64,000 bases of DNA from an uncultured Acidobacteriota bacterium (GTDB lineage: Bacteria > Acidobacteriota > Thermoanaerobaculia > Multivoradales > UBA5704), in NCBI GenBank assembly GCA_963795735.1, contig CAWCIU010000004.1:128654-192653 (forward strand), written 5' to 3'. The stretch's first letter is position 1. Each line of letters starts with the position of its first letter. Made by a program: the position numbers and the translations under genes. Below are positions 5,776 through 58,042 of this stretch, one piece after another. The notes below the pieces were generated by a model that was not told where the DNA came from, did not search any database, and was given only the letters and a program-made list of their open reading frames with translations.

Positions 5776-8235
5776 GTGATCCTCCTCCCCGGCCTCTATC
5801 TCGCTCTCCTCTGCTTTCTCCTCGACCGCGCCCTGCGGCGCTGGTGGGAGCCGGTACCGGGGCGCGTCTGGGCGGCCTTCGGGCTGGTGCTGGTGGTCCT
5901 CTTCGGGCCGGCGCTGTTCCTGGGAAGGGTGCTCCTGCCCACCGACATCCTCCCGGGGGTGGCGCAGCCTCAGGACGTGGGGGAAGATCCCCGCGGCAAC
6001 GTCCTGCAGCTCGACCTGGTGACCCAGATCGTCCCCTTGCAGGCCGAGGTGCGGCGGGCGGTGCGGGCCGGGGAGTGGCCGCTGTGGAACGACCTCGCCG
6101 GGGCGGGGATGCCGCTGCTGGCCGATCCGCAGTCGCAGACCTTCGAGCCGCTGGTCCTCGCCGCCCTGCCGCTCCCCCTGCCGGCGGCGGTCGGGGTGAC
6201 GGCGGCCCTGCGGGTGACGATCGCCCTCGTCTTCTTCTTCCTGCTCCTGCGGCGGCAGGGGCTCTCGGTGGAGTCGTCCCTCTTCGGCAGCCTGGCCTTC
6301 GGGCTCGGGGGGTTCCTGCTGCTCTGGCTCAACTGGCCGATCGGCAACTCGCCGGCCCTCCTGCCGCTCGTCCTCTACGCCCTGGTGGTGACCGCCGAGC
6401 GGGGCGCGCGGCGGGACTTCCTGCTGCTCGTCGGGGCGCTCTTCTCCCTGCTGGTGGGAGGGCACCCCGAGACGGCGCTCTACGTGGCGATCGTGGGCGG
6501 TCTCTTCGCGCTCTCCCGGCTCCTCCGCCGTCCGTTCCGGGAAAGAGCCGGGGAGCGGGCGAGGCTGGCGGCCCGGTGGGCGCTCGCCGGAGCGATCGCC
6601 TGCGGCCTGGCCGCGCCCGCTCTGCTCCCGGCGGCCCGGCTGATCCCCCAATCCCTCCGCCACCACCGGGTGGAGGTGCGCAACGAGCGGATCGCGGCGG
6701 ACCCCTCCGACTTCATCCCCTGGGAGATCCGCCGCGAGCGCAAGGAGCAGGCGCTGGGGATCGAGAAGCGCGTGGTGGCGGTCTTCGCGCCGAACGCCTG
6801 GGGCAACAGCCGCTACGGCTACTACTGGGGGGATTCCAACACCAACGAAGATTCCTCGGCCTTCGTGGGCGGCGGCGCGATGCTCGCCGCCCTGCTCGCC
6901 TTCCTGCCGGCCGCGCGGCGGTTCCGCGAGGAGCGGCTGTTCCTGGCGCTGGCGCCGCTGAGCCTGCTGATCGCGGCGCACATCCCCGCCGTGACCCGCG
7001 TCGTCGTCCAGCTCCCCCTGCTCAACCAGTCGATCACCGCCAACCGGCGGCTGCTCCTGGTCCTCGCCTTCTCGCTGGCCTATCTGGGAGCCTGCGCGGT
7101 GGAGCGCTGGCGCGACGGCGAAGGACCGGGCCGGGTGGCCGTCCTCGCCGGCGCGGCGATCCTCCTCGGCCTCGTCGCCTGGGGATACCTGCTCTCGGCC
7201 GACGTGGAGGCGCTGCGGGCCCTGCGCTGGTTCTGGATGGGAGCGCAGCTCGCGATGGTGGCGGGCGCGGCGGGGCTGCTGCTCTTGCGGAAACGGGCCT
7301 GGTCGGTCTGGGCTCTCTGCGGCCTCGCCGCCCTCGAGCTGATCGTCATCCATCTCCCGGCGAATCCGTCGCTGCCGCGCAGCACCTATTATCCGACGAC
7401 CCCCGCGATTCGCTTCCTCCAGGAGAACGCGGGAGGATTCCGCATCGCCGGCCTGGCCAACCGGCTGCTGCCCAACGCCTCGGCGGTCTACGGTCTGGCG
7501 GACATCCGGATCTCCAACCCCATGAAGCCCTATCTCTACGTGCAGGCGGTAGGGCCGGTCAGCGGCTCGACCCGCGCCACGGAGCACGTCCTGAGGAAGG
7601 CCGAGCACCCCCTCTATCAGCTCCTCGGGGTGCGCTGGGTGGTGGCGCCGGCGCGGATGCGATCGATCCCCGGCCTGCGGCCGGCCTTCCACGATCCCAC
7701 GGCGCGGATCTTCGAGCGTACCGAGGTGCTCCCCCGGCTCTTCCTCCCCGACGCGGTCGAGAGCGCCGGCGAGACGCCCTGGCCCCAGTGGCTGGCCGCG
7801 AACCCCGACTTCGCCGCCCTGGCGCTGGTCGCGCCGGCGCCGGGCCGGCCGGCGGCATGGGCCGCTGCCCGGCCGAACGAGTCGGTCCTCCATCTCCTCG
7901 CCCTCCAGCCCGCCCGCCTCGCCGCCCGCGGTCACCTGACCGAAGAGCGCCTCCTCGCCTCCAGCGTCTATCAGGACGGCGGCTGGAGTCTCCTCCTCGA
8001 CGGCAATCTCCACCCCACCCTGGTGGCGGACGGCCCCTTCGTCGCGGCCTGGTTGCCGGCCGGCGACCACCGGCTGGAGATGCTCTACAGGGCGCCGGGA
8101 TTGATTCCGGGACTGGTCCTGGCGGCTCTGGCGCTGGCGGGAATGGCGGCGTGGTGCCTGACGCCTGTCCTGCCGGGTTCCCGTCGCGATGAACCGGAGG
8201 GTCCTGCCTTGCAATCGCAAGAATCGCGGTGTTAG
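5776..8235 (+). CDS. Large polytopic membrane protein, YfhO-like (putative glycosyl-transfer/membrane biogenesis)
   Basis: 819 aa with many N-terminal TM helices and a large extracytoplasmic C-terminal region ending in a TM anchor. The architecture resembles the YfhO family. GTG start. Confidence 0.55.
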   Translation: MILLPGLYLALLCFLLDRALRRWWEPVPGRVWAAFGLVLVVLFGPALFLGRVLLPTDILPGVAQPQDVGEDPRGNVLQLDLVTQIVPLQAEVRRAVRAGEWPLWNDLAGAGMPLLADPQSQTFEPLVLAALPLPLPAAVGVTAALRVTIALVFFFLLLRRQGLSVESSLFGSLAFGLGGFLLLWLNWPIGNSPALLPLVLYALVVTAERGARRDFLLLVGALFSLLVGGHPETALYVAIVGGLFALSRLLRRPFRERAGERARLAARWALAGAIACGLAAPALLPAARLIPQSLRHHRVEVRNERIAADPSDFIPWEIRRERKEQALGIEKRVVAVFAPNAWGNSRYGYYWGDSNTNEDSSAFVGGGAMLAALLAFLPAARRFREERLFLALAPLSLLIAAHIPAVTRVVVQLPLLNQSITANRRLLLVLAFSLAYLGACAVERWRDGEGPGRVAVLAGAAILLGLVAWGYLLSADVEALRALRWFWMGAQLAMVAGAAGLLLLRKRAWSVWALCGLAALELIVIHLPANPSLPRSTYYPTTPAIRFLQENAGGFRIAGLANRLLPNASAVYGLADIRISNPMKPYLYVQAVGPVSGSTRATEHVLRKAEHPLYQLLGVRWVVAPARMRSIPGLRPAFHDPTARIFERTEVLPRLFLPDAVESAGETPWPQWLAANPDFAALALVAPAPGRPAAWAAARPNESVLHLLALQPARLAARGHLTEERLLASSVYQDGGWSLLLDGNLHPTLVADGPFVAAWLPAGDHRLEMLYRAPGLIPGLVLAALALAGMAAWCLTPVLPGSRRDEPEGPALQSQESRC

Positions 8236-8244
8236 TTTCCTTTT

Positions 8245-8850
8245 GTGATGCAGTGGCCATTTCGTAAATCTTGCCGACAAAGAGAGCGCATTGGCCTCTT
8301 CTCGGCCCTTCTTCTTTTTTTAGGATTGTGGAGTTGCTCGAGCCACTCCACCACCGATAGCCTGCCGCGCCGGATATCAAGCAATCCTCCGGAGTCATTT
8401 CGAGGCTTCTGGCAAGACGACGAACACGCCGATTATCTGGTTGACATTGAGGACCAGCGTGTCGTCGTCTCTTTCAATGGCCAAGTCCGCAAGGTCGCGG
8501 CCATTCTCGATCCCCTGGACTCGCATCTACGCCTCTGCCAGGATGGCCAGGAAGCCACGCGAGAGCTCTTCCTGAACTTGGACAAGCTTACGATCCTGGA
8601 CCCACGCACAAGCGAAAGGCATCACCTGCACCGATTGGCGAGCAAGCCGCGAGAGCTGACGATTTCGCCCCTCAAGCTCCCCGAGGCTTTGCCGGTCACC
8701 GCCGAGAGAGCCCAGAATATCGAGGGGAAGCTGGCAAACGTGTGCGAGCCGACCAGGAGGCCCAGAAGTCACGTTTCGAACAGATGTGGGGAATCGGGGG
8801 AGCGCGGTCACCCAGGGGACAGGCATTACCGGACGATCTCGATACCCTGA
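8245..8850 (+). CDS. Hypothetical lipoprotein (may be the N-terminal part of a frameshifted gene)
   Basis: Signal/lipobox-like LFLGLWSCSS. Sits in a lower-GC patch. The last ~35 codons look like out-of-frame read-through into the next ORF. Confidence 0.35.
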   Translation: MMQWPFRKSCRQRERIGLFSALLLFLGLWSCSSHSTTDSLPRRISSNPPESFRGFWQDDEHADYLVDIEDQRVVVSFNGQVRKVAAILDPLDSHLRLCQDGQEATRELFLNLDKLTILDPRTSERHHLHRLASKPRELTISPLKLPEALPVTAERAQNIEGKLANVCEPTRRPRSHVSNRCGESGERGHPGDRHYRTISIP

Positions 8851-9290
8851 ACATGATCGCCGTCAAAGCGGAAAACACCAAATTCTTGAAAGACCTCGTG
8901 GCCGAGATCGGCTGGATCGATTCGCGGCGCTTTGGCTCCATCGCCGCGGATTACGCCTTTCTCCTGGCGCAGCACAGCCAGGACATCCCCCTTATGCTGG
9001 CAGCTCTGCCGAAGATCAAAGAGGAGATCGAAACTCGCCGGTTGGAAGGGGATACTTACGCGCTCTTGTACGATCGTATTCAGCTCCTTCTAGGTGAGAA
9101 GCAACTCTACGGTACGCGGATGGGAAAAGATCCGGCGGGTCAACCGATCGTGCTGCCGACTCGAGCTCCCGGAAACCGTCGATGAGCGCAGGAAAAACCT
9201 CCGGATGGGGCCGTTGTCCGAGTATGTGAAGATCTTTGGTGCGAATGAGGTTCGATTCAGCCTGGCCTGTCAACAACCTAGACGGCTTGA
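8742..9290 (+). pseudogene. DUF6624-like gene with apparent frameshift(s)
   Basis: The frame-3 ORF carries DQEAQ...GWIDSRRFG...LLAQHS...YALLYDRIQLLLGEKQLYGT, a DUF6624-like pattern recalled from memory. The expected C-terminal ELPETVDERRKNL.MGPLSEY continues in a different frame after ~9160. Confidence 0.4.
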
Positions 9291-10018
9291 ATCTGCCGCA
9301 ATGCCACGACTGGACAAGGCCCAAGGCACTTCTTTGCGTCCAGACCGCAAGACGCAATCACTGTTGCCCAATGCGAGAAAACCTCGTTTAGTGAATTAGT
9401 CGAAGGTCCGAACTCAATCGCGAGATAGCCCTGAACCGGGGTACTTAAAATCACTCCAGCATAGGCTAGAGCTGCCGTGACGGCATCCCATTCGTCTTGC
9501 GAAGATCGGATGGGCGGGGTAGTTCTATATGCACCCGTTACGAAAGCCTCAAACAGGCAAAGTTGTCCGGAATCTGGAGGCTTTCGATCCGTCAAAAATT
9601 GGGGCCGGAGTCCCATCCGGTCAAGTTGGGAAATCAGAATCTTGCCAAGCGTCAAAGCTTTCATCGTTGCGGCGGCGCCAGACTGCAAATACCATGCGTA
9701 GCCAACTTCATGTTCAAAACGAAGCGTGAAGAGCCTGCCACTGTCAGGGAGTGCCGAGGGGGCGGGAGTCCACATCGGAGCCTCGAATCCCAAAGCAACC
9801 CCGGTGCCTGCTCTGAGATCGTCGGCGATACTGGAAGCCAATATGTTCAGATCTGTTCCTGAGCTCCGGCTCATATTAAGCGCTAAGGGATCTATTGCCC
9901 CAGACTCCAGGGAAGGAGCGAGCCGAGCCCAAGCGAACTTTTTCCTTCCGATGGGCTGGCCGTTTATACCTAGCGTGATAACAGCGATATCCACACCATA
10001 GACGACTGTTTTGGTCAT
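9278..10018 (-). CDS. Hypothetical protein (possibly RNase H-like/DUF429-like fold)
   Basis: 246 aa from the ATG at 10018; the ORF-track extension to 10498 overlaps the neighbouring gene. Lower GC than the surroundings. Only weak DUF429-like features (VYGVD..., DEWDAVTAALAY). Confidence 0.45.
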   Translation of the reverse strand: MTKTVVYGVDIAVITLGINGQPIGRKKFAWARLAPSLESGAIDPLALNMSRSSGTDLNILASSIADDLRAGTGVALGFEAPMWTPAPSALPDSGRLFTLRFEHEVGYAWYLQSGAAATMKALTLGKILISQLDRMGLRPQFLTDRKPPDSGQLCLFEAFVTGAYRTTPPIRSSQDEWDAVTAALAYAGVILSTPVQGYLAIEFGPSTNSLNEVFSHWATVIASCGLDAKKCLGPCPVVALRQIQAV

Positions 10019-20570: not shown

Positions 20571-21686
20571 ATGCCGCCGAAACCGAATCTCTGGCCCGCC
20601 GCGAGGGCGCTTCTCGCGTTGGCGGCTCTCGCCGCTGCCGCCGCCGCTCAACCGCCGCAGAGGCCGCAAACGTCACCAACGTCGCAGACGTTCACCGGCC
20701 AGCTCGTCGTCCGCGAGCGGGAGATCGTGGTCGACCTCCCCGACAACGTCTCCGGCAAGCCCCTCCGACCAGGGGACTTCCAGGTGCTGGTGGACGGACA
20801 GCCCCGCGAGGTCACGCGAGCGGCGCCGGTCTCCCGGGAGGGCCCCGCGCCCTGGACCTTCCTCATCTACGTCGACCGCGTCCTGGCGAGCTCCGGCACC
20901 GCCTTCTACTCGGAGCTAGCCCTTGCCGAGCACGCCGGGGACCTGGCCCGCCTGGGTATGGTCGAGGTGGCCGTCGCCCGCTCCGACCCCGGCACCCGGC
21001 TCTCCCCCACCCGGGAGGCGCGGAAGATCGGGCAGACGCTCGCCGGGCTGGCCGGCGCCGACCGGCTCGAACGGGACCGCGGCCGCGGCGCGGAGCCCCA
21101 ACCGCCTTCCGACGTCCAGGTCCGCCGGCAGCTCGAAAAGCTGCTCGCCTTCGTCGCCTCCCGCCGTCCCTCGGGGCCGCGCGTCCTTTTTCTGGTGGCC
21201 GACGGCGCCGACCTGGCGACGGAGGCCCGCAGCGCCGCCTTTCACCGTGCCGCGGACCTCCTCGCGGCTCGCGGATGGATCGCCGTCCCGATGGCGGTGC
21301 GCCCGGACAACCCGGGGGCTCCGGTCGCTCCCCGGGCGGAAATCGACCTCTTTCGCGAAGGAGCGGGCCCGTCGGGCCACACGATCAGCCCGCCGCCGGT
21401 CTTCCATGCCCACGGGCAGAAGCGGTCGGCGCTCGCCTACCCCCGCGTGATCGACCTCTTCACCGATCCCAAGATGGCTACCCTCCATGTCCTCAGCTCG
21501 ACCACGGCGGGCGCGATGATCGGCTATGGCGTCCAGCTTCCCGCGCTTCTCGCGGAGCTGCCGCGCCGCTGGATGATCTCGATCGCCGAGCCGGATTCGC
21601 CGCCCGTGGAAGGCCGCCTGCACACCCTCGCGGTGAGACTCCCCGGACGGAAGACGGAAGCGCGGGCGCCCGCCTGGCTGCCCTAG
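20571..21686 (+). CDS. Secreted VWFA-related (acidobacterial-type) domain protein
   Basis: Signal peptide followed by ...VVDLPDNVSGKPLRPGDFQVLVDGQPREV..., a pattern typical of the VWFA-related acidobacterial domain family (recalled, not searched). Confidence 0.45.
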   Translation: MPPKPNLWPAARALLALAALAAAAAAQPPQRPQTSPTSQTFTGQLVVREREIVVDLPDNVSGKPLRPGDFQVLVDGQPREVTRAAPVSREGPAPWTFLIYVDRVLASSGTAFYSELALAEHAGDLARLGMVEVAVARSDPGTRLSPTREARKIGQTLAGLAGADRLERDRGRGAEPQPPSDVQVRRQLEKLLAFVASRRPSGPRVLFLVADGADLATEARSAAFHRAADLLAARGWIAVPMAVRPDNPGAPVAPRAEIDLFREGAGPSGHTISPPPVFHAHGQKRSALAYPRVIDLFTDPKMATLHVLSSTTAGAMIGYGVQLPALLAELPRRWMISIAEPDSPPVEGRLHTLAVRLPGRKTEARAPAWLP

Positions 21687-24600
21687 CCGGCGGCCCGCAG
21701 CTCTTCGGCCGCCTGGTCGAGGACCACGCGCAGGGTCTCTCCCAGGGTCTGCGGAGAGAACGGCTTCTGCAGGCAGACCGGTGACCCCGGTCCGCCGTCG
21801 GAGAGCTGCTCGTCGTTGTAGCCCGACATGAAGACGATCCGGGTCAGGGGACGCTCGGCGCGCAGCCGCTGGGCGAGCTCCGTCCCCTTCATCTCCGGCA
21901 TCGTGACGTCGGTCAGCAGCAGGTGGACGGCGCCGCGGTGGAGGCGCGAGATGACCAGCGCCTCCTCGCCGGACCCCGCCTGGAGCACCCGGTACCCCCG
22001 GCTGACCAGGATCTGGTGGAGCACCGTCCGCACCTCGTCCTCGTCCTCCACCAGCAGGACCGTCTCCGAGCCGCGGTCCGAGATGCCGGCCGGCACGCCG
22101 GCCCGCACCCCCTCGATCTCGCGGGTGACCGGCAGGTAGATCGAAAAGCAGGCCCCCTGCTCCGGCGCGCTGTTGACGAAGATCTGGCCGCCGCTCTGGC
22201 GGACGATGCCGTAGGCGGTCGAGAGGCCCAGCCCCGTTCCCTCGCCCTTGGTGCTGAAGAAAGGCTCGAAGACGCGCGCCTGGGTGACGGCGTCCATGCC
22301 GGCGCCGGTGTCGGTCACGGTCAGCAGGACGTAGGACCCCGGCGGCACGTCGTCATGGGGCGCGGGGTGGTCGAACGTGACCTCCAGCGGCACGGTGCGC
22401 AGGATCAGGCGCCCCCCGGCGGGCATGGCATGGCGGGCGTTCACGGCGAGGTTGACGATGACCTGCTCGAGCTGCCCGGGATCGATCTTGACCTTGCCGA
22501 GCTCCGGGTGGAGGTTGGCGCCCAGGTGGATGTCCTCGCCGAGGAGCCGCTGGAGCATCTTCTCGAGCCCCGTGACCACCCCGTTCAGATTCATCACCCG
22601 GGTCTCCATCGGCTGCCGGCGGGCGAAGGCGAGGAGCTGCTTGGTGAGGGCGGCCGCCCGCTGGCCCGCCTCCTTGATCCCGGTTAGGTTGCGGGAGAGG
22701 AACGGGTCCTCCTGGTAGTGCTCGAGCAGCAGGTCGCTATAGCCGAAGATGGCGAGCAGGCAGTTGTTGAAGTCGTGGGCGACGCCGGCCGAGAGGCGGC
22801 CGATGGCCTCCATCTTCTGCGAGTGCAGGAGCTGGCGCTGGAGCGTCTTGTTCTCGGCCTCGTCGCGCTTGCGCTGGGCGATGTCGCGGATGGCGACCAC
22901 CGAGACCTCCTCGCCCTGGAAGAGATAGCGTTTGCCGGCGATCTCGATGTCGACCGTCGCGCCGTCCCGCTGGAAGCCGACGCTCTCCCGCGGCACCCCC
23001 TCGAGATCGACCTCGTCGGCGACCAGGTCGGAGAGCCGGCGGCCGAGGAGCTCGTCGGGCGGGCAGCCGAAGATCGTGAGGAGCGCCTGATTGACCTCCA
23101 GCACCACGCCGTTGCGGACGATGGCGATCCCCTCGAGGGTGGCCTCGAACAGGGTGCGGAAGCGCTCCTCGCTGCGCCGGATCTCCTCCTCGGCCGCCTT
23201 GCGCTGGGCGATCTCCTGCTGCGCCTTTTCGTAGAGGCGGACGTTCTCCGCCATCGGGGCGATCTGGTTGGCGACCGTCGACAGCAGGCGGATGTCGCTG
23301 GTCGGGAAGAAATCGTCCGGATCGCGCCGGCCGATCAGCCAGACGCCGACCGTCTGGGCCTGGAGGACCAGCGGGATCACCAGCCGCACCCAGGAGAGGG
23401 CGGGGTCGCCGGGGCCCTGCCCCAGGTAGCGGCCGCTCTGGGCGAGCAGCACCTGGAGGGTCTCCCGCGTCGGCTCCGCCGCGCCGGCCGGCACGGCCTG
23501 CTCGTAGAGGGTCTCCTTGCGCCCCTCCTCCAGCAGGTAGAGCGCCGACTGGCGGATCAGCAGGGTGGGCAGGATCTCCTCGGCGACGACGCGCCCCAGG
23601 GCCTCGCGGTCGAAGGCGGTGGGGATGCGCTCCGAGACGATGCCGATCACCTCCTCCGGCGAGTGCTTGATGCCGAAGACGTAGCGGTCCACCAGCGCCT
23701 GGAACCGGTCGCGCAGGAGCGGCACGGCCGCCATGTACACCAGCGAAACCGCCAGCAGGGTGGCCAGGAAGTCGACGCTGATGGTCTTCCAGTGGCTGCA
23801 GATGGCGAAGAAGACGATCGTGTACGACGAGAACAGGAGCGCCGAGAAGGTGTAGGTGCCCAGGAAGCGGTTGGCCCGCAGCTCCAGCGCGCCGAGATGG
23901 TGCTTGTAGATGGCGTAGATGTAGCTCATCGGCAGGATCGGGATCGACGCCGCCGAGATGCCCAGCATGAAGGGATAGAACGGCCGGAAGTCCTTCCCCT
24001 CCAGGGCCATGTGCCGGAACCAGACGAGCAGCACGCCGTGGAACACCACGAACGGCACCAGCCCCAGGGTGACGCCATACAGCATGATGCGCACGGCGAC
24101 CTTGGTCGCCGGATCGACCGGCAGAAAGAGACGGACGAGGAGCAGACCCACGGAGAGCAGGACGGCCGCCGCGGTGTACCAGACGAACAGATAGCCGAGC
24201 TTCTGGAGCAGCAGCAGGGAATCAAGGAACGTCAGGACCAGGGCCGCGGCGTAGAAGAAGGCCTGCACCCCCCGTTGCAGCCGTCTCCCCAGCAGATCGC
24301 TGGGCAGGATCGTATGGAGGTGGACCGCCAGTGGCAGGAAGAACCAGATCGCGACGTGGAAGACGTAGGACGCGTAGCTCGTCCGCGCCGCGAACCCCGA
24401 CGCGATCCACAGCGCGGTCACATAGCTGAAGAGGATCAGCACCAGCCAGCGCTCGTCGCGGGGGCGCAGGAAGATGATGACGATCGTTCCCATCAGCCAG
24501 AAGATGATCGGCGCGAATATGGAGTAGAGCAGCTGCGAGATCTCCACGCGCTCCGCCCGGACGCGGATGACGCGATCGAGCAACTGCCCCCTCCGGATCA

Positions 24601-24907
24601 GCCGCACCGGCGCGACGCCCCGGGCGTCGAACAGATCGGGGACCGACAGCCGGCGGTCGCGCATGAATTGCTGGTAATCGACCCCCGCGATCGAGAGGAC
24701 CTCGTCGCCGACCTCGAGACAGGTCTGGGGCGGCCCCTCGCAGGGAGGGGCGGAGACGACCTTCCAGTCGGAAGCGCTCAGGGTGAAGCCGAGATCGGGG
24801 AAGGAAGAGACGTAGGAGTAGAACAGACAGGGCAGCAGGACGAGCAGGGAGACGAGGACCAGGAAGAGGTCCAGGGTCTTCCAGGAGGAGGAATTCCGGG
24901 CATCCAT
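21683..24907 (-). CDS. Hybrid sensor histidine kinase with polytopic (about 10-11 TM) sensor, PDZ-like loop, GAF, PAS, HisKA, HATPase and REC
   Basis: TM1 followed by LEVGDEVLSIAGVD (PDZ-like), then many TM helices. Also a PAS region (ERFRTLFEATLEGI), H-box GVAHDFNN, a G-box and a C-terminal receiver (LLLTDVTMPEM). Start chosen at the ATG at 24907. Confidence 0.85.
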   Translation of the reverse strand: MDARNSSSWKTLDLFLVLVSLLVLLPCLFYSYVSSFPDLGFTLSASDWKVVSAPPCEGPPQTCLEVGDEVLSIAGVDYQQFMRDRRLSVPDLFDARGVAPVRLIRRGQLLDRVIRVRAERVEISQLLYSIFAPIIFWLMGTIVIIFLRPRDERWLVLILFSYVTALWIASGFAARTSYASYVFHVAIWFFLPLAVHLHTILPSDLLGRRLQRGVQAFFYAAALVLTFLDSLLLLQKLGYLFVWYTAAAVLLSVGLLLVRLFLPVDPATKVAVRIMLYGVTLGLVPFVVFHGVLLVWFRHMALEGKDFRPFYPFMLGISAASIPILPMSYIYAIYKHHLGALELRANRFLGTYTFSALLFSSYTIVFFAICSHWKTISVDFLATLLAVSLVYMAAVPLLRDRFQALVDRYVFGIKHSPEEVIGIVSERIPTAFDREALGRVVAEEILPTLLIRQSALYLLEEGRKETLYEQAVPAGAAEPTRETLQVLLAQSGRYLGQGPGDPALSWVRLVIPLVLQAQTVGVWLIGRRDPDDFFPTSDIRLLSTVANQIAPMAENVRLYEKAQQEIAQRKAAEEEIRRSEERFRTLFEATLEGIAIVRNGVVLEVNQALLTIFGCPPDELLGRRLSDLVADEVDLEGVPRESVGFQRDGATVDIEIAGKRYLFQGEEVSVVAIRDIAQRKRDEAENKTLQRQLLHSQKMEAIGRLSAGVAHDFNNCLLAIFGYSDLLLEHYQEDPFLSRNLTGIKEAGQRAAALTKQLLAFARRQPMETRVMNLNGVVTGLEKMLQRLLGEDIHLGANLHPELGKVKIDPGQLEQVIVNLAVNARHAMPAGGRLILRTVPLEVTFDHPAPHDDVPPGSYVLLTVTDTGAGMDAVTQARVFEPFFSTKGEGTGLGLSTAYGIVRQSGGQIFVNSAPEQGACFSIYLPVTREIEGVRAGVPAGISDRGSETVLLVEDEDEVRTVLHQILVSRGYRVLQAGSGEEALVISRLHRGAVHLLLTDVTMPEMKGTELAQRLRAERPLTRIVFMSGYNDEQLSDGGPGSPVCLQKPFSPQTLGETLRVVLDQAAEELRAAG

Positions 24908-25150
24908 GATCGTCGATCGTCGAAGGACAAAACGCGTCGAAGGGCGGAACGCCAGCGGCGCGCTCCATCGCGCCCCTTGCCGCGCCATCTCCTTGAAACC
25001 GCGATTCGCTGCGCCTTTATAGCAGGCTTGGCCGGCTGCGGTCCAGCCGGAAGACGGCGTAACGGCCGCCAGCCCCCGGGAAAAAGCCCGGGGGCCGCGC
25101 GGACACTGACAGGGAGACCGTGAGGACCGGGCCCGACCGCCGACGGGCGG

Positions 25151-25342
25151 TCAAGCGTTCGCGATCCTGAGGTTCGAGCCGCCGGCATCGTCGGCCGGCG
25201 GCCACTCCATCCAGCCGGACGGCGAGGCGTCCTGCACCGCCTTCAGGTCGAGCCCTCCCAGCCGGTGCAGAATCTCGAACAGGAAAGTCTTTTCGTTCTT
25301 GGCCGCGAAACGGGACACGAATTCAGTCATTGACATGATCAT
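25151..25342 (-). CDS. Short ORF A: candidate ComX-like precursor peptide (W-x-x-WPP motif)
   Basis: 59-63 aa; three in-frame ATGs at 25342/25336/25330 lie just after GGAGGG. Paralogous to ORF B (shared F.S...E..LF..L..L ... W..WPP..D.GS). Same strand as the flanking enzyme and kinase. Confidence 0.55.
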   Translation of the reverse strand: MIMSMTEFVSRFAAKNEKTFLFEILHRLGGLDLKAVQDASPSGWMEWPPADDAGGSNLRIANA

Positions 25343-25668
25343 CCCTCCTACGGGGAAAGTTCAAACCTTTCAAGGCTTGAGGGTTCGATTCGAGAAGAAC
25401 GGGACGGGAGGAGGCCTTGGGGGGGCCGCGCGCGGAGGTCCGCCCGGCGGGGATGGCCCCTGCCGCGGGCGGCACGGAATCGTGGATGTCGCGGGGCGAA
25501 GAGATCGGGACCGCAGGAAGATTCTCGCTCGGCCAGGGCGGCCGGAGGACCTTGACTGCGCTGCTCAACGTACCGAAGCAGAACGTGAGCATTTCAACTC
25601 CCTCGAGCGTCTTCCGGTATCCCCGGGCGGACGCTGCAAGTATACGCCGCGATGAAAAACCGGACCTC

Positions 25669-26622
25669 TCAGCGCAATACCAGCGCCATGGGATCCTCGA
25701 CGCCGACCTTCTCCAGCAACCGGTACAACGGCTGCGTATGGATCTCGAGCAGACGCTCGATCGGTTCCGGATTGCGGAGCGGAACGCGGGCGAACAATTC
25801 CCGCAGCTCTCGCGAAAATTCGATCAATTTCAACGTGCAATAACTGACCGCGCCGCTGCGGAACAGGATCTTCTGCGCCTCGGCGAGCGCCTCCGGGTCC
25901 TCGGTCCGCGCCGACAGGTGGAGAAAGTCCTCCCGGTCGGCGTGCTCGGCGGTCATCGCGTACAGCAGCGGCAGGCTGTTGGAGCGCCGCTGCCAGTCCG
26001 CGCGCGCCGGCGTCTCGAGCGCGTCCGTGAGATCGTCGCTGACCTGGATGAAGAGGCCCAGGATCCGCCCCAGACGCGCCAGGTGATCCGCCGTTCCAGG
26101 CGAGGCGCCGCCGAGCAGAGCGCCCATGCGCAGCGCCTCGCCGAACAGCGGCGGCGTCTTGGTCTCCACTACCCGCCAGTATTCCTGCTCGCTCGCCAGC
26201 TCCCGCGCGTCGAGGTTCTGCCCATAGCAGGTCGCGAGCGACATCTTGGCGAAGCTCGCCTGCAGCGCCGCGCGGATCTCCGCGGAGGCATCGGCCTGCT
26301 CGAGCAGCAGATGACCCGCGGCCTGGAAGGCCAGCCCCAGGTTCGCCGCCGGTCCGATTCCCAGCACCCGGTAATCGCCCCGGGGATCGTCGTCCAGCAT
26401 GTCGTCGACCAGATGGATGCTGATCACCGAGCAGAATACGGCCGCCGCCGCCGGCAGGGCCGCCGCTTCGCCGCCGCCGACCGCCAGGCAGGCGGAAATC
26501 GGATGCTCCCAGACCGAGAGCGACTCCTTGTGGACCATCCGTTCGACCAATCCGAGCATCTGTGGCCAGGAGGCGACAATCTCGAGATTGCGGACCCGGG
26601 ATTTCAATTCATCGAATTGCAT
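25669..26622 (-). CDS. Polyprenyl synthetase-fold protein (ComQ-like candidate peptide prenyltransferase)
   Basis: 317 aa from the ATG at 26622 (RBS GAGGAG). Both Asp-rich motifs are present: HLVDDMLDDD and QVSDDLTD. All-helical isoprenyl diphosphate synthase pattern. Confidence 0.75.
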   Translation of the reverse strand: MQFDELKSRVRNLEIVASWPQMLGLVERMVHKESLSVWEHPISACLAVGGGEAAALPAAAAVFCSVISIHLVDDMLDDDPRGDYRVLGIGPAANLGLAFQAAGHLLLEQADASAEIRAALQASFAKMSLATCYGQNLDARELASEQEYWRVVETKTPPLFGEALRMGALLGGASPGTADHLARLGRILGLFIQVSDDLTDALETPARADWQRRSNSLPLLYAMTAEHADREDFLHLSARTEDPEALAEAQKILFRSGAVSYCTLKLIEFSRELRELFARVPLRNPEPIERLLEIHTQPLYRLLEKVGVEDPMALVLR

Positions 26623-26748
26623 CGCAAACAACTCCTCTTTGCGAAACCTTTCAGATCGGACCCGGGGTTCGGCCCCGGGTCCGGACACTGCTTCAGGATC
26701 GGCACGAAATGATCAAGCAGATTTCATGCCTGCAAAAGCACCCTCTCT

Positions 26749-26937
26749 TCAGGCGTGCACGGCGACGAGCGAGCCGTCGCCACCCGGCGGCCAGGAGCCC
26801 CAGTCCACGTCGATCGTCACATCGCCGCTCGACATGAACTGGACATCCTCGACCAGGCTCAAGGTGCGCAGCGCCTGAAAGAGGTGACCCTCTTCGCTGC
26901 CGGACGTGAGCTTCGAATGAAAATCATGAATGTGCAT
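26749..26937 (-). CDS. Short ORF B: candidate ComX-like precursor peptide (W-x-x-WPP motif)
   Basis: 62 aa with RBS GGGAGAG 8 nt upstream of the ATG. Paralogue of ORF A, with C-terminal DVDWGSWPPGGDGS. Confidence 0.55.
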   Translation of the reverse strand: MHIHDFHSKLTSGSEEGHLFQALRTLSLVEDVQFMSSGDVTIDVDWGSWPPGGDGSLVAVHA

Positions 26938-27191
26938 TGGCGTAGCTCTCCCTCTGGAGGGACGCAGATCCCTCCGTCAAACGGTTAGTTGGTTTAAACA
27001 GAAAACAACAAGAGAAGGACGGTGTCGGAACCGTCAGGTGAGGCAGGCTGTCATGTAAAACCCCCCATCGAAATTAAAGAAAACAACATAACGGAAACGC
27101 AGGAGCGTGCACGTCCGTGCTCTCTAGTGTGACCAGACGAAGAGAGCGGGACAGCGACCTGCCGGTTTCCGGATCGAACTTGAAATTTCCG

Positions 27192-28362
27192 CTAGTGTAG
27201 TGGGTCCGATGTTCGGCAACTTCTGTTATCCTTTCCTGGTAGGGAATACCTCCAGGAGGGAACATGAAGGTAGCTGTCTCGATAGTCCTTTCGCCTGAGG
27301 AGAGGGCTGAGCTTGAGAAGCTTGCACGTGGCCGTAGGGTATCCGTGCGCGTGGCAGAGAGGGCGAGAATCGTCCTGCTGGCTGCTGAAGGCAAGCAGAA
27401 CCGAGAGATTGCTGAGATTTCTGGTGCAGCGCGACGGACAGTTGGTGTTTGGCGCCGTCGTTTTGCCGAGAAGCGGACCGTCGGCATCTTGAAGGATGCC
27501 CCTCGGGCCGGGAGGCTGCCTTCGATTGGCGAGGATGTAATTCGGGAGATCGTGCGCAAGACGACGCAAGAGACGCCAGTGGCGGGAACGCACTGGAGCA
27601 CCCGTAGTCTGGCCAAGATGATGGGGCTGAGCCCGAGCACGATCGGTCGTGTCTGGAGACGTCATGGCCTGAAGCCTCACCTGACTCGAACCTTCAAATT
27701 GAGTCGGGATGCGAGGTTCGTGGAGAAGTTGGAGGATGTCGTCGGTCTTTACCTGAACCCTCCAGAGCATGCGCTGGTTTTCTCTGTCGATGAAAAAAGC
27801 CAAATTCAGGCGCTCGACCGCACCCAGCCAGGCCTTCCCCTTGTGCCGGGCCGCCATGGCACGATGACCCACGACTACAAGCGCCACGGAACGACGACAC
27901 TGTTCACTGCGCTCAATACGCTGAACGGGAAGGTGATCGGGACCTGCATGCCGCGGCATCGCCATCAGGAGTGGATTAAGTTCCTGAGCCTCATTGACCG
28001 AGAGACCCCGAAGAGCCCGGAGATTCATCTGATCGCGGACAACTATGCGACTCACAAGCATCCGAAGGTTCAAGCTTGGCTGGCTCGCCATCCGCGGTTC
28101 AGGATTCATTTCACCCCAACCAGCGCCTCATGGCTCAACATGGTCGAAAGGTTCTTCCGTGACCTGACAGAAAACCGGTTGCGTCGGGGCATCTTTCGCA
28201 GCGTCGCAGATCTGGTTACGGCGATCCATGAGTATCTGGCTCGTCACAACGAAGATCCCAAACCCTTTATCTGGACGAAGACCGCAAGCGACATCCTTGA
28301 AAAGGTCACACGCGCTCGGCAGGCTCTGGTTAAGGACACATCTGTTTGACCCACTACACTAG
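27192..28362 (+). mobile_element. IS630-family insertion sequence
   Basis: Perfect terminal inverted repeats CTAGTGTAGTGGGTC (27192-27206) and GACCCACTACACTAG (28348-28362). Consistent with a TA target duplication (27193-94 / 28360-61). One transposase gene inside. Confidence 0.9.
27264..28349 (+). CDS. IS630 family transposase
   Basis: 361 aa with an N-terminal HTH ([18 protein letters not shown]) and a DDE domain: ...[13 protein letters not shown]..., [20 protein letters not shown]. Confidence 0.9.
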
Positions 28363-29636
28363 CGAGCGGAGCGGACGGCGCCGAGCGGCTCCAGGACGGC
28401 GCCGCTGTTGGCCGAGGAGCCGCCCTTGAGGATCTGGGCGAGCTCCAGGCCGGGCAGGGGTCGCTGGAAGAAATATCCCTGCGCATAGTCGATGCCGAGC
28501 AGGCGGAGCACCTCCGCGTCCTCGGCGGTCTCGACGGCTTCCATGACGGTGGCGGTGCCGGCGCGCGCCGCCATCTCGGCCGTGCTCTGCACGATGATCT
28601 GTTTGAACGGATCGTGGGCGAGGCCGCGGCAGAAGGTGCCGGATATCTTCAGAAAATCCGGGTGCAGATCCTGGAACAGATTGAGGTTCGACGAGCCCTC
28701 GCCGAAATCGTCGAGAGCGATGCGGAACCCTCGCTCGCGCAGCCGCTGCAGCGTCGCCGCGAAGGCGCTCGGATTGACGATCGTCTGCTGCTCGGTGAGC
28801 TCGAGGACGATGTCCTTCTCGGAAAAACCCGCCGAGTGCACCGCGTCGCAGAGCCGCGCCGCGAACTCGGGGTTGGTCAGCGACCGGGGCTGCACGTTGA
28901 GGAACGTGGCGATCGAGTTGCCGAGATGGACCACCTCGGTCAGGGCGGCGCGGATGCAGATCATGTCCGCTTCGAAGAGCAGCTCCTTCTGCGCCGCGTA
29001 GGCGAGGAAAACCGCGGGGCTTCCCAGGACCGAGCCGGCCGGTCCACGGGCGAGGCTTTCGACGCCGAACACCTCGAACCGGGTGGCGTCCTGGAGCCGG
29101 ACGACCGGCTGCAGCACGGCGCGGATCGGGTTGGCCGCCATGAACTCCTCGAGCAGCTCGACGTGCTGCACCTCCCCTTCTCCTTCGAAGACAAGGCCGG
29201 AGGAGAGCCGCGCGCGGCGGTCCAGCAGGTACCCCCGCAGCCGCGTGAGCCCCTCGGACTTCTCCAGCACCGCGGTGACGCCGAGCACGGAGCACAGATC
29301 GCGCACCGCCTGATCGACGTACCCGCTCAGCACGTAGACCGCCGTGTCGGGAAAGTTGGCGGTGACGAAACGGACGAGGCGCATGCCGTCCAGCCCGCCG
29401 AGCTGCGAGACGGAGAGATCGGTGATCACCACGTCGAAGCGGAAGCACCGGAGCAGCGCTTCGGCGGCTTCGATCTCCATGCAGGTGGTCAGCTCGACGC
29501 CGGGCAGCCGCAGACAGGCGGCCAGCGTGTCGACCACGATCGACTCATCATCGAGAATCAGCACCCGAAGCACGGCGTCAGTATCTTCCCGTCCGGGCGG
29601 GGAACCGCGGCCACGCGGCCCCGCAGACATCGGCAT
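28359..29636 (-). CDS. Response regulator receiver + EAL domain protein (c-di-GMP phosphodiesterase-like)
   Basis: REC (VLILDDE...VVITDLSV), then an EAL fold with the variant signature ESL, ELTEQ, ALDDFGEGSSNL, LKIS (usual KID changed) and GYFFQRP. The TAG stop lies at the IS630 junction. Confidence 0.85.
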   Translation of the reverse strand: MPMSAGPRGRGSPPGREDTDAVLRVLILDDESIVVDTLAACLRLPGVELTTCMEIEAAEALLRCFRFDVVITDLSVSQLGGLDGMRLVRFVTANFPDTAVYVLSGYVDQAVRDLCSVLGVTAVLEKSEGLTRLRGYLLDRRARLSSGLVFEGEGEVQHVELLEEFMAANPIRAVLQPVVRLQDATRFEVFGVESLARGPAGSVLGSPAVFLAYAAQKELLFEADMICIRAALTEVVHLGNSIATFLNVQPRSLTNPEFAARLCDAVHSAGFSEKDIVLELTEQQTIVNPSAFAATLQRLRERGFRIALDDFGEGSSNLNLFQDLHPDFLKISGTFCRGLAHDPFKQIIVQSTAEMAARAGTATVMEAVETAEDAEVLRLLGIDYAQGYFFQRPLPGLELAQILKGGSSANSGAVLEPLGAVRSAR

Positions 29637-55781: not shown

Positions 55782-56143
55782 CCTGAAAGTCCTGCGCGAA
55801 CCTTTCTCACAACCATTTCAAAAGTTCTCAACAAGACAAAACCCAATAAAAATCCAGTTATAAGATCGCGTGAGCATAAAACTGAGAATCGAGCATTTGA
55901 TACGTTTGGCAGCCACCAATATGAAACTATATATAAGGAAATCGCAATGGTAAAATAAATTTCCATCATGATATCGTAGTTCAAACTGCCTGGGGCAGGA
56001 ACATTCATATGGTGACGAACAATCCTGAGCCGTCCAAAAATTCGAAAGAGTAAGCGTAAGATCATCTTAAATATTGACTCTGGCATTACGGGCGAATAAG
56101 CAGTCTTGCCAAGCATGTTCAAAACGTACATTAAGGGGGTCAT
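55782..56143 (-). pseudogene. 5' part of the IS66-interrupted K-channel-like membrane protein gene
   Basis: The track ORF 55778-56143 terminates at a TAA supplied by the IS66 end. The ATG at 56143 overlaps the upstream stop (ATGA). Confidence 0.7.
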
Positions 56144-57228
56144 AGAGCGCCCTCGCTAGACCACCAAAGGATTTTTTTTACTAGAAAATCAGTGTAGGCG
56201 GCTTTGGCCCACGAGCTAAGCCTCAGTAGAGGCCGATAGAATGCGCTATTATCTAGCACGATTACCTCCTTGCCTGTTAGTAATGCCTCTAAGCCAACCG
56301 TGGAGTTTATTGTGACTACTTTATCTACGCGCTGCAGCACGGAGAATAAATTTTCTCCTTCATTAATGCTAAGCTTTGGAAGCTTAGATACCGTTCGGGC
56401 TATTGCCTTGCGTTGCTCTTGGGCAGAATAAGGGTGCAGCCTGAAGATCCCCGTCATGTCAGGATCATTACGGCTTTCCGAGGAGAACCACTTGAAGAGT
56501 TCTTGATCTGGACTTCGTCCAAATGATTTGAGTTGCAAGTCGCTACGCACTTGCCCTATTAGGAGGTGCGACGCGCGGATACTATGAATTTCTTCAGTAA
56601 GGGTGCTTGGATACTTGGACTCCTTTGCAGATAGCCAGGATTGCAGGAAATGCCAGCCTGCGCCAGCATCAAATTCCTTGGCTACGGCGGGGTTAAAAAG
56701 CTTGGTGGCCTGCCACAGATTGCTATTAGTACGGTAGTATGGTATATCAAAAGAAGCTATGTAGCTATTCGGGAAAAATCCTTTTTCGAAAAATATCACT
56801 CTCATACAATGTCTTTGGGCGAGAATCAATCCAACTTTGTTGACCAGGTTTCGGGCTCCCCATATGAGTATAGATTGGGGGCAGATTTTGTCAATAATTC
56901 CGTTCAGATTGAAATAAGCTGCTTGTGCGGTGCTTCGGATGGCATTTGTAATGTCTCGGGTGTCAGCTGCATCAAGAATCAGTCCTCTCTCGACCTTTAT
57001 CCACTCTCCTAAGGGGAGCGGAACGCATCCTGAATAAAACAAAATATGCTCTCTTATTCCGAGCTGTTTCAGTGCTGTTCTAGCTTTCTCTTGTTGCGGT
57101 GGATGGTTATTCGATTTTATGAGATCGCAAAAATCAACTAGATAGAGGGCGCATTTCAAGTTCTCGCGCAAGAATCTTTCAAATCGATCTCGATCTCTGA
57201 CAAATGAGGGGATAATAACCAAGATCAT
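56140..57228 (-). CDS. Capsule_synth (KpsC/KpsS-like) glycosyltransferase-fold protein
   Basis: The C-terminal VVTINSTVGLEALLTGKEVIVLDNSAFY matches the KpsS/KpsC family signature region (recalled). 362 aa, AT-rich codon usage. Confidence 0.55.
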   Translation of the reverse strand: MILVIIPSFVRDRDRFERFLRENLKCALYLVDFCDLIKSNNHPPQQEKARTALKQLGIREHILFYSGCVPLPLGEWIKVERGLILDAADTRDITNAIRSTAQAAYFNLNGIIDKICPQSILIWGARNLVNKVGLILAQRHCMRVIFFEKGFFPNSYIASFDIPYYRTNSNLWQATKLFNPAVAKEFDAGAGWHFLQSWLSAKESKYPSTLTEEIHSIRASHLLIGQVRSDLQLKSFGRSPDQELFKWFSSESRNDPDMTGIFRLHPYSAQEQRKAIARTVSKLPKLSINEGENLFSVLQRVDKVVTINSTVGLEALLTGKEVIVLDNSAFYRPLLRLSSWAKAAYTDFLVKKILWWSSEGAL

Positions 57229-57235
57229 AACAGTA

Positions 57236-58042
57236 TTATGGGATTAAAATTTCCAAGGATTCTGCGTCAGTCCTTCCGGGTAAGTGCATTCGACCACCTG
57301 AGTCAACTACGACGTAGTCGTTATTAGCCTTGTGGAAGGACAGTAATCTAAAATCAATAGGGTACTGATCGCCTAGTCGTATGGTGAGATCAATTAGCTC
57401 ATGTTCGGGAAGAAACTCCTCACTAGATATGCTTTCGCCGCGACCTAGCTTAGACAGTGGGAGCAGGGCGACAAGAGCCAGATTAGGCTCCATTTTTAGT
57501 ATTTCTCCGACAAGAACATGAATCTGAGTGACATTTGATTTTGAGACCACGATGTTTACAGATTTTCGGAAGTCCTTATTTTTTATCTGCGCGAAAAAAT
57601 CTGCAATTTTAAGCTTTTGGCTCAGTCGGTAGTTTCTGTGTAAGCTTACCTGCCCAAAGGGCTCATCTATGCTAACGTTTAGCTCATCAGTACTGTTTAG
57701 TATTTCGATAATGTCGTCTCCTGCAGGTACGGTTCCATTTGTAGTTATCTTGATAGTCTCGATTTTCTCGGAGTTATGGAGGAGACGGATTAGATCGCTC
57801 AATTCAGGCGCGAGCAGGGGTTCACCGCCAGACACTGTAACTCCTCGAACTCCTAGCCACTCAATAGCTTTGATTATGCTGCCTAAATTAGGCTTGGCGT
57901 GCGGAATCTCAGGTCCGCTTCGGCTCAAGCAGTAGCGGCACCTTAAGTTGCAGAAGCGTGTGATGTGGATACATGCTCTCTCAGTGTTGGCTCCTTGTAA
58001 TCTGTTCAATGGGTTCTGTAATGTGATATCGCTCTCGATCAC
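57236..58042 (-). CDS. Radical SAM enzyme, viperin/MoaA-like half-barrel
   Basis: CNLRCRYC (CxxxCxxC) about 30 aa from the N-terminus, SGGEPLL, TTNG and a C-terminal NNDYVVVDSGGRM. The start is GTG at 58042 or TTG at 58009; there is no in-frame ATG. Confidence 0.8.
   Translation of the reverse strand: MIESDITLQNPLNRLQGANTERACIHITRFCNLRCRYCLSRSGPEIPHAKPNLGSIIKAIEWLGVRGVTVSGGEPLLAPELSDLIRLLHNSEKIETIKITTNGTVPAGDDIIEILNSTDELNVSIDEPFGQVSLHRNYRLSQKLKIADFFAQIKNKDFRKSVNIVVSKSNVTQIHVLVGEILKMEPNLALVALLPLSKLGRGESISSEEFLPEHELIDLTIRLGDQYPIDFRLLSFHKANNDYVVVDSGGRMHLPGRTDAESLEILIP

Follow-up and report, generated by a model that had tools for sequence, protein, structure and literature searches.

A short-peptide, prenyl-synthase-fold enzyme and sensor kinase cassette of an uncultured Acidobacteriota bacterium as a candidate prenyl-peptide signalling system

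Introduction

A stretch of 64,000 nucleotides from contig CAWCIU010000004.1 of an uncultured Acidobacteriota bacterium from soil, here called the window, carries on its minus strand two short open reading frames (ORFs; pepA and pepB), a gene for a protein of the prenyl-synthase fold and a gene for a polytopic hybrid histidine kinase. The question raised by this locus is whether the enzyme prenylates a peptide that the kinase senses, as was suggested when an earlier note on this DNA called it comQ-comX-comP-like, or whether an ordinary isoprenoid synthase merely lies beside unrelated genes. ComX-type prenyl-tryptophan pheromones have been seen as a speciality of the Firmicutes, and an enzyme-peptide pair from the Chloroflexi was reported only in 2026. 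The answer towards which we lean is a peptide-signalling system of the RiPP type (peptides ribosomally synthesised and modified post-translationally), with a tryptophan (Trp)-prenylated precursor, a dedicated sensor and an output in cyclic di-GMP (c-di-GMP). Here we describe the parts of the cassette, their linkage across genomes and the residues of the enzyme, and weigh this reading against three others.

Organization of the locus

The four minus-strand ORFs named in the earlier note are all present, and a gene for a REC-EAL response regulator lies upstream of them. The features of the cassette are as follows.

26749-26937, minus strand: pepA, ORF of a 62-amino-acid (aa) precursor-type peptide; 82 bits with the peptide hidden Markov model (HMM)
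25669-26622, minus strand: prenyl-synthase-fold enzyme, 317 aa, PF00348; putative peptide Trp prenyltransferase
25151-25342, minus strand: pepB, paralogous precursor, 63 aa as ORF, probable start Met3 (25336); 60 bits with the peptide HMM
21683-24907, minus strand: hybrid histidine kinase with GAF, PAS, HisKA, HATPase_c and REC
23618-24907, minus strand: sensor module of the kinase (aa 1-430), with a first transmembrane helix (TM1), an extracytoplasmic beta-rich loop and nine helices
24548-24805, minus strand: extracytoplasmic loop of the sensor (aa ~35-120), possibly of PDZ-like fold in the model
21683-23611, minus strand: cytoplasmic part of the kinase, GAF 433-553, PAS 581-634, HisKA 703-765, HATPase_c 809-928 and REC 950-1058 (Pfam)
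28359-29636, minus strand: REC-EAL response regulator, predicted output as a c-di-GMP phosphodiesterase; Pfam EAL 165 bits, Response_reg 45 bits

The ribosome-binding site (RBS) proposed for pepA, GGGAGAG, was confirmed 8-14 nt 5' of the ATG. For pepB the ORF stands, but the proposed RBS, GGAGGG, abuts the first ATG; because of this, and because homologues fit M-x-[IM]-x-[DE]-F, Met3 (25336; 61 aa) is the likelier start. The two short ORFs are indeed paralogous (BLASTP E 2e-4), and the peptide HMM matches both. For the enzyme, the ATG at 26622 is favoured over a GTG at 26688 by the lengths of its homologues (315-317 aa). Other statements of the earlier note were borne out: both aspartate-rich motifs, HLVDDMLDDD and QVSDDLTD, are present in a protein matching PF00348; Pfam finds GAF, PAS and REC on the hybrid kinase, together with HisKA and HATPase_c; and the supposed Acidobacteria-like host agrees with homologues named Thermoanaerobaculia, a class of the Acidobacteriota.

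Conservation of the cassette

In the first four contexts compared, the gene order was REC-EAL, an ORF of ~60 aa, the enzyme, an ORF of ~61 aa and the kinase. A species scan was then based on one genome per species (73 loci), with a search from a 14-sequence enzyme alignment, and a peptide HMM built from the short ORFs was used to search all six frames of every locus. A leader-type peptide was found in 57 of the 58 Acidobacteriota loci with at least 500 nt of upstream sequence available, and a homologue of the sensor module in all 49 with at least 2 kb available downstream. The reverse search, made from the sensor alignment alone, returned 80 metagenome loci; wherever at least 1.5 kb of upstream sequence existed, the enzyme and the peptide were found upstream (58/58). 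In either direction of the search, the polytopic kinase sensor and the enzyme-peptide pair predict each other, and the inspection of the neighbourhoods of enzyme homologues, which the earlier note had recommended, placed a short Trp-containing ORF next to the enzyme nearly always, other phyla included. Orthologues of pepA lie upstream of the enzyme, and those of pepB between enzyme and kinase in most Thermoanaerobaculia loci.

As a control for synteny, two flanking genes were followed, one for a secreted protein of 371 aa (hyp371) and one for a gamma-glutamyltranspeptidase (GGT). They recur in 30-33 of 74 evaluable loci (<45%) and were rejected as members of the system on this account. The cassette is conserved more strictly than its surroundings.

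Two Thermoanaerobaculia loci (L039, 3388-6105; L044, 5926-8569) show the order peptide-enzyme-peptide-enzyme-kinase, each enzyme following its own precursor. The layout with two peptides and one enzyme may go back to a tandem duplication in which one of the enzyme genes was later lost.

Precursor peptides

The sequence of pepA is MHIHDFHSKLTSGSEEGHLFQALRTLSLVEDVQFMSSGDVTIDVDWGSWPPGGDGSLVAVHA. Its conserved N-terminal leader (MHIHDFHSKL...LFQALRTLS) is followed by a variable linker, the core W46-G-S-W49-P-P and a Gly/Asp-rich tail of 13 aa with Ala as the last residue. The peptide of pepB is built in the same way, with the core W44-M-E-W47-P-P (WMEWPP) and an Ala-terminal tail. Neither peptide matched any family of Pfam (E <= 10) or NCBIfam (E <= 0.1), the NHLP and Nif11 leader models included.

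Across the family the leader consensus is MSIHDFYSKF..LFEALRRLS. Among 111 distinct peptides from related loci 106 contain W-x-x-W, and the remaining five retain the second Trp alone; by estimate, ~1% of random 60-mers would contain the motif (assuming ~1.3% Trp), and the sequences leave no room for chance as the source of the pattern. Of the W-x-x-WPP motif proposed in the earlier note, W-x-x-W holds as the universal core, and WPP proved to be a variant seen in those Thermoanaerobaculia that are most closely related. Around the invariant second Trp, linker and tail are hypervariable, and the commonest residue preceding the first Trp is Gly (70/195 peptides). Loci carry one to three precursor genes, and peptides one to four cores. 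The family thus combines what defines RiPP precursors, namely a conserved leader, a short core with variable flanks, adjacency to an enzyme and multiple copies or cores. Because the loci with the peptide-enzyme pair range from 32 to 72% G+C, conservation acts on the protein.

The peptides of sensor-containing loci have a Gly/Asp/Pro-rich tail past the last Trp (median 14 residues), the last residue of which is Ala in 116 of 185 peptides and Val in 20. The Ala-terminal tail might be a processing or recognition signal. The idea that the tail is the ligand of the PDZ-like loop was dropped, since there are Anaerolineae with the sensor but without the tail.

Prenyl-synthase-fold enzyme

The enzyme matches PF00348 (polyprenyl_synt) with 61.8 bits (E 7.6e-17), the match beginning at profile position 57, and belongs by its fold and its aspartate-rich motifs to the trans-isoprenyl diphosphate synthase superfamily (trans-IPPS, also trans-IDS). 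Of the aspartate-rich motifs, the first (FARM) is D73-D74-x-x-D77 and the second (SARM) is D196-D197-L-T-D200 (D196-D197-x-x-D200). FARM, SARM, K155, Q193 and D209-W210 are invariant or nearly so over 42 family members of 29-55% identity. There are more than 800 close homologues, almost all of 315-317 aa, and the family comprises 174 clusters (50%-identity representatives) at E <= 1e-30, whereas solved canonical synthases reach just 22-44 bits against the single enzyme sequence. The best score of the enzyme with an NCBIfam equivalog model was 85.2 bits, against a cut-off of 450, and with IdsB it scored 53.8 bits against 475.

The AlphaFold model of the enzyme (predicted local distance difference test, pLDDT, 89) superimposes on many trans-IPPS structures with template-modelling (TM) scores of 0.7-0.8, and Foldseek ranked canonical synthases first and the indole prenyltransferase Ord1 43rd. 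Fold comparison was rejected as a test of transferase versus synthase, as it does not discriminate between them.

The residues of the active site are more telling. The alignment used included an E. coli IspA sequence 100% identical to PDB 1RQJ and a ComQ sequence identical (100%) to database proteins with relatives that bear the name ComQ. In the IspA structure, said to have been described by Hosfield et al. in 2004, the basic residues K45, R48, H77, R95/R96 and K237 reportedly bind isopentenyl diphosphate (IPP) and diphosphates, and K181 is reportedly the allylic-site lysine. In the enzyme family the K45 column is variable, the R48 column holds an invariant Trp (W38), the H77 column is non-basic (Val in the window enzyme), the RRG sequence with R95/R96 after the FARM is replaced by P-x-G, and the K237 column is Ser or Asn; K181 is retained, as K155. 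By this alignment, the enzyme has lost the basic residues of the IPP site. It appears capable of binding and ionising a prenyl diphosphate, though not of binding IPP, and because the IPP-binding residues are lost, it is unlikely to be a chain-elongating synthase. The comparison with genuine farnesyl and geranylgeranyl diphosphate (FPP and GGPP) synthases that the earlier note had proposed sets the enzyme apart by its IPP-site residues and by its scores with the NCBIfam models.

Given these sequences, the peptide is very probably the substrate of the enzyme, and the modification is probably prenylation of Trp. The second Trp of the motif, being invariant, would be the likeliest target.

One homologue of 655 aa (P0175) was considered as a prenyltransferase fusion and rejected, as an enzyme ORF and a sensor ORF are merged in it. 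In two long-read loci from metagenome-assembled genomes (MAGs), L056 (5926-11252) and L062 (5989-6950), the enzyme is broken into several frame fragments, as is the kinase in L056; these could reflect pseudogenisation or indel errors of the assembly.

Occurrence in other phyla

Distant homologues of the enzyme (35-50% identity) were found in Plesiocystis pacifica SIR-1 and other Myxococcota, in Kordia, Aureisphaera galaxeae, a Cytophagales MAG, Candidatus Entotheonella TSY1 and Anaerolineae. Of the 11 non-Acidobacteriota loci with upstream DNA, 10 encode a peptide with the same leader pattern that ends in W-x-x-W. The Kordia peptide ends in ...SEFVGWTPWVA; Entotheonella has two precursor genes, whose products end in ...YNTWDPW and ...SLAWAEW, and an ABC exporter adjoins its pair; three precursor genes stand in tandem in Aureisphaera and likewise in the Cytophagales MAG. 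In Plesiocystis and two Myxococcota/Deltaproteobacteria MAGs, a single precursor carries three or four G/A-W-x-x-W repeats, and such repetition of cores suits a substrate, not a subunit of the enzyme. Among carriers of the pair, Plesiocystis pacifica SIR-1 and Aureisphaera galaxeae NBRC 110018 are in culture; those found in Kordia are MAG or uncultured assemblies. The loci of Bacteroidota, Myxococcota and Entotheonella, which have no sensor, more probably make a secreted RiPP.

In the multi-core precursors of the Myxococcota (L067, 5442-5990; L064, 5404-5922; L060, 5649-5921), the cores lie 10-14 residues apart behind one leader.

Sensor module and hybrid kinase

The earlier note had described the sensor as TM1, a PDZ-like loop and about ten further transmembrane helices. 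TM1 and a beta-rich loop are present, followed by nine helices rather than ten. By hydropathy and the AlphaFold model (pLDDT 68), both the N-terminus and the GAF domain are cytoplasmic. Conserved motifs of the module are FWLMGT, LRPRDERW, HLH and YAIYKHHLGALEFRANR. Neither Pfam nor NCBIfam had a family matching the module, or the first 470 aa of the kinase as a whole, apart from a chance-level hit to DUF2417 (Pfam, E <= 10).

The loop is modelled as beta strands (pLDDT 70-89). Pfam found no PDZ domain in it; Foldseek returned the PDZ domains of DegS (probability 0.97, E 0.41) and RseP, and phmmer that of Scribble (E 0.56) over a GD-x-[VI]-L-S-I motif, all of these non-significant. The model and these matches are a hint of a PDZ-like fold, which is what is left of the earlier description. 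As to the ligand, we regard the chances that it is the prenyl-peptide product as evenly balanced.

Two observations on individual loci may be recorded here. On a complete Thermoanaerobaculaceae chromosome (L001/L018, 9683-12900), the receiver of the kinase is called as a separate ORF of 154 aa overlapping the 3' end of the kinase gene, either a true gene split or a frameshift. Homologues of the sensor module with 47-48% identity (P0296, P0299) are labelled as coming from Candidatus Methylomirabilis and Solirubrobacterales MAGs and lie on contigs of 2.5-2.7 kb; they represent either the cassette in further phyla or mis-binned contigs.

Output through c-di-GMP

The REC-EAL protein matches PF00563 with 165 bits over 236 of 236 profile positions, and its translation shows the motifs ESL, N, ELTE, DDFG, K and E..E/Q, which we take to be the catalytic motifs of EAL enzymes. 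A homologue is present in 71 of the 78 sensor loci with enough upstream DNA. In Anaerolineae the sensor module (E 3e-47), encoded after the enzyme, has three GAF domains and an HD_5 domain of the HD-GYP type (115 bits) fused to it, with no kinase. The case for control of c-di-GMP by the system is strongest here, in that two unrelated phosphodiesterase outputs, REC-EAL and the fused HD-GYP, attach to one sensor module, and this backs the coupling suggested in the earlier note. The output in Acidobacteriota and Anaerolineae would then be hydrolysis of c-di-GMP, and the REC-EAL protein would be the partner of the kinase. A regulator of the ComA type (LuxR/GerE), absent according to the earlier note, was also missing among the eight proteins scanned at 20.5-31.3 kb, where the sole GerE match was sub-threshold and lay in a transposase.

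This transposase belongs to an insertion that separates REC-EAL from pepA in the window; in relatives REC-EAL lies directly upstream of pepA.

27189-28364, plus strand: IS630-family insertion sequence (IS), transposase 27264-28349; not part of the system

The element has Pfam DDE_3 and HTH domains and terminal inverted repeats of ~17 nt at 27189-27206 and 28347-28364 (CGCTAGTGTAGTGGGTC); none of the related loci has it at this position. REC-EAL now terminates at a TAG within the right inverted repeat, its own 3' end having been replaced by the insertion. About 250 nt of native sequence are left 5' of pepA.

Elsewhere, the G+C content of the window is 0.65-0.76, dropping to 0.45-0.50 at 56001-60000 and to 0.57 at 8001-10000; these two stretches may be foreign or mobile DNA.

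Hairpins and transcription signals

Each precursor gene of the window is followed by a hairpin.

26657-26683, minus strand: hairpin in the spacer between pepA and the enzyme gene, 11-bp G+C stem
25070-25097, minus strand: hairpin after pepB, 11-bp G+C stem

The spacer between pepA and the enzyme gene (109 nt) folds with z = -3.6. A comparable hairpin 3' of the precursor gene occurs in 87% of 205 segments; for 410 control windows the figure is 35% (Mann-Whitney p ~1e-49). To judge from these downstream hairpins, the precursor genes behave as separate small genes. A RiPP structural gene followed by partial termination or stabilisation of its transcript is a familiar arrangement, and the hairpin between pepA and the enzyme may be an attenuator or a 3' transcript stabiliser.

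A scan for sigma-70 promoters yielded none, and the sole terminator-like match was no better than chance. Rfam at E <= 1 gave nothing in the cassette besides a chance small-RNA match, and no riboswitch; anywhere in the window, no Rfam family reached gathering scores and no tRNA was detected. A further hairpin with a stem of 7-8 bp, GGAGGGA-TCTGCG-TCCCTCC, lies at 26960-26985 just 5' of the RBS of pepA and after a TTGAC element, with a z of only -1.9.

Proposed mechanism and alternative explanations

The following course of events is proposed. pepA and pepB would be translated into precursors of ~60 aa, each with a helical leader and a W-x-x-W core, and the leader would dock on the enzyme. The trans-IPPS-fold enzyme, its IPP site lost, would bind and ionise an allylic prenyl diphosphate by means of FARM, SARM, K155 and Mg2+, and the prenyl group would be moved to the indole of the core Trp rather than used for elongation, a reaction of the type attributed to ComQ, PalQ and StheQ. 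The lipidated peptide, presumably exported and possibly trimmed, would be detected by the 10-helix sensor module in the periplasm or within the membrane. The kinase would then control REC-EAL, so that c-di-GMP is hydrolysed and its level falls. The prenyl-peptide part of this scheme came through every computational test that was able to refute it, and is supported to that extent.

Several points weigh against the scheme. The SARM has the canonical form DDxxD, where ComQ and StheQ have a pseudo-SARM, and fold and profile searches place the enzyme family nearest to ordinary GGPP synthases. Sensors are lacking in the loci of Bacteroidota, Myxococcota and Entotheonella, and signalling is accordingly not a universal role of the pair; most sensor loci come from one phylum, where vertical inheritance could explain part of the linkage. 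Neither a protease nor an exporter is conserved with the cassette. The kinase has a REC domain of its own and no Hpt lies nearby, which counts against the proposed step to REC-EAL, and in the window the IS element upstream of pepA might affect expression. Selection on codons adds little: the NG86 estimate of dN/dS, the ratio of nonsynonymous to synonymous substitutions, is ~0.55 over whole peptides, and the corresponding ratio of proportions (pN/pS) for the leader is merely ~0.6 with synonymous divergence near saturation. These statistics are uninformative because synonymous sites are saturated, and conservation of the motif across phyla is relied on instead. For every member of the family, moreover, the function of the cassette is read from sequence. 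The first of these points loses its force through PalQ, a proven Trp prenyltransferase that keeps the SARM aspartates (PMC10853753), so that a canonical SARM is no argument against peptide prenylation.

The same chemistry might serve a different end, the product being a secreted RiPP such as an antibiotic, a surfactant or a membrane-active lipopeptide, with the kinase providing autoregulation or immunity as NisK does for nisin. Such a role is suggested by the sensor-less pairs of Bacteroidota, Myxococcota and Entotheonella, by the adjoining exporter in the last of these, by multi-core precursors, which are typical of natural-product RiPPs, and by the increase in membrane activity that prenylation confers on peptides (PMC13290415). 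The Acidobacteriota and Anaerolineae fit it less well: the dedicated sensor is always present, its output, turnover of c-di-GMP, is a switch of lifestyle and not a means of immunity or export, and their cassettes have no conserved immunity gene, transporter or protease. For the window locus we consider a secreted RiPP unlikely, although the two roles are not mutually exclusive.

Two further explanations dispense with peptide modification. The small proteins could be regulatory or structural partners, like the small subunits of heteromeric synthases, of an enzyme that makes or binds a free isoprenoid sensed by the membrane module. Heteromeric trans-prenyl synthases with non-catalytic small subunits do exist (PDB 3aqb and 9kp1 are among the structure matches), the SARM is retained in canonical form, and the conserved helical leader could be a binding interface. 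Yet the repetition of cores two to four times per polypeptide, the tandem copies of up to three per locus, the hypervariable linker and tail around an invariant Trp and the hairpins after the precursor genes are hallmarks of a substrate, and with the IPP site lost, elongation has no acceptor; partnership of this kind is improbable. Most improbable of all is that the enzyme is an ordinary GGPP or FPP synthase, with the short ORFs and the kinase as mere syntenic neighbours. Database homologues bear the name 'geranylgeranyl pyrophosphate synthase', the nearest solved structures are GGPP synthases and both aspartate-rich motifs are present, but the scores fall far under every NCBIfam equivalog cut-off, the IPP-binding residues are missing, the family forms a clade separate from the canonical synthases, and the peptide neighbour persists across phyla where true flanking genes do not.

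If the preferred reading, a prenyl-peptide signalling system, is carried further, one may tentatively picture lipopeptide quorum sensing in diderm bacteria (Acidobacteriota, Chloroflexota), a proposal that we would place somewhat short of even chances. A new IPPS-derived clade would produce the signal, a 10-helix receptor with a PDZ-like loop would lower c-di-GMP through REC-EAL or HD-GYP and thereby tie the change between sessile and motile life to cell density, and the same pair would have been recruited for multi-core prenylated RiPPs in Myxococcota, Bacteroidota and Entotheonella. If true, the principle of the prenyl-Trp pheromone would extend to the soil Acidobacteriota, which are abundant but poorly understood, and to four or more other lineages; the W-x-x-W precursors would be a new family, the peptide prenyltransferases a new clade and the membrane receptor a new module; a ribosomal lipopeptide signal would be linked directly to c-di-GMP turnover; and hundreds of 'geranylgeranyl pyrophosphate synthase' entries would have to be re-annotated. 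The chemistry is directly testable because cultured carriers of the pair exist, and the enzymes are of interest for the biocatalytic lipidation of peptides.

Comparison with known systems

The literature search found nothing on an acidobacterial ComQ-like system or on a W-x-x-W RiPP tied to an IPPS-like enzyme, in agreement with the earlier note, which had thought the system undescribed. In the literature searched, the enzyme clade, the W-x-x-W precursors, the sensor module, the c-di-GMP output and the spread among diderms appear to be undescribed. The enzyme family might overlap a published sequence-network cluster; PalQ, StheQ and ChrPC were compared by description only.

Quorum sensing by ComQXPA in Bacillus relies on isoprenylation by ComQ of a Trp in pre-ComX and on ComP, the polytopic kinase by which the product is sensed. 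With ComQXPA the locus shares a trans-IPPS-fold enzyme beside a precursor of ~55-70 aa with Trp near the C-terminus, and a polytopic histidine kinase. In ComQ, as in the window enzyme family, the FARM and the allylic-site lysine are kept and the Lys/Arg residues of the IPP site are absent. The two differ at the SARM, where ComQ has a pseudo-SARM, N/G-D-x-x-x in place of DDxxD (bioRxiv 10.64898/2026.08.29.745113; PMC10853753), with SGDY or ENDY at the column of the invariant canonical DDLTD of the window family. On the same scale, the family HMM gives ComQ 30-56 bits, Ord1 66 bits and the GGPP synthase 5jfq 83 bits; hhalign of the enzyme family with ComQ (IPR033965) gives a probability of 97.8% at 19% identity. 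Because the SARM is canonical and ComQ scores below ordinary GGPP synthases, the enzyme is by sequence not a member of the ComQ family. The precursor, only downstream of the enzyme in ComQXPA, lies upstream here with a second one downstream, and the two paralogous precursors continue for 13-15 aa beyond the W-x-x-W core. The sensor module here has no match among the known families of Pfam and NCBIfam (model searches, the ComP sequence itself not being compared), there is no LuxR regulator of the ComA type, the predicted output is hydrolysis of c-di-GMP, and the hosts are diderm. The resemblance to comQ-comX-comP drawn in the earlier note is one of functional analogy and not of family membership, and the gene order differs, as a precursor precedes the enzyme.

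All characterised trans-IDS-like peptide prenyltransferases target Trp, according to a 2026 review (PMC13290415), and a preference for Gly ahead of the acceptor Trp is described (PMC13290415). In Paenibacillus alvei, the PalP-PalX-PalQ locus (PMC10853753) resembles the window locus in its clustered histidine kinase, precursor and trans-IDS-like Trp prenyltransferase, and the preferred Gly has its counterpart here in the Gly that is commonest before the first Trp. By its published description PalX is set apart by an NHLP-type leader and a strictly C-terminal Trp, whereas the window peptides run 13-16 residues past Trp; peptides ending 0-3 residues after Trp were seen only in the relatives from Bacteroidota, Entotheonella and Anaerolineae. 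StheQ/StheX of Sphaerobacter thermophilus, for which Trp farnesylation was shown and which extends such pairs to the Chloroflexi (bioRxiv 10.64898/2026.08.29.745113), is likewise a ComQ-like enzyme-peptide pair outside the Firmicutes, its peptide of 69 aa having an ordered N-terminus and a flexible, Trp-containing C-terminus. As described, StheQ differs in a DExxD FARM and an NDxxD pseudo-SARM, and StheX in lying downstream of the enzyme and ending in WW-x, with no sensor described.

Two all-alpha, IPPS-derived enzymes that act on indole or Trp complete the comparison. Ord1, a Streptomyces indole prenyltransferase (PDB 9V4G; PMC12510300), is the top single-sequence PDB match of the enzyme (43.5 bits) and shares the conserved Gln one helical turn before the SARM (Q193 here). 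It differs in using a small acceptor and no peptide, the acceptor being given as indole (PMC12510300) or as free tryptophan (PMC13290415), and its distance from the enzyme family is no smaller than that of GGPP synthases. The P domain of ChrPC, as far as it is portrayed in the review (Hubrich et al. 2024 via PMC13290415), is the other; ChrPC is there a fused prenyltransferase-cyclase, and no such fusion occurred among the best 150 representative relatives of the window enzyme. The general kind of system to which we would assign the cassette is already established by ComQXPA, PalPXQ, StheQX, Ord1 and ChrPC.

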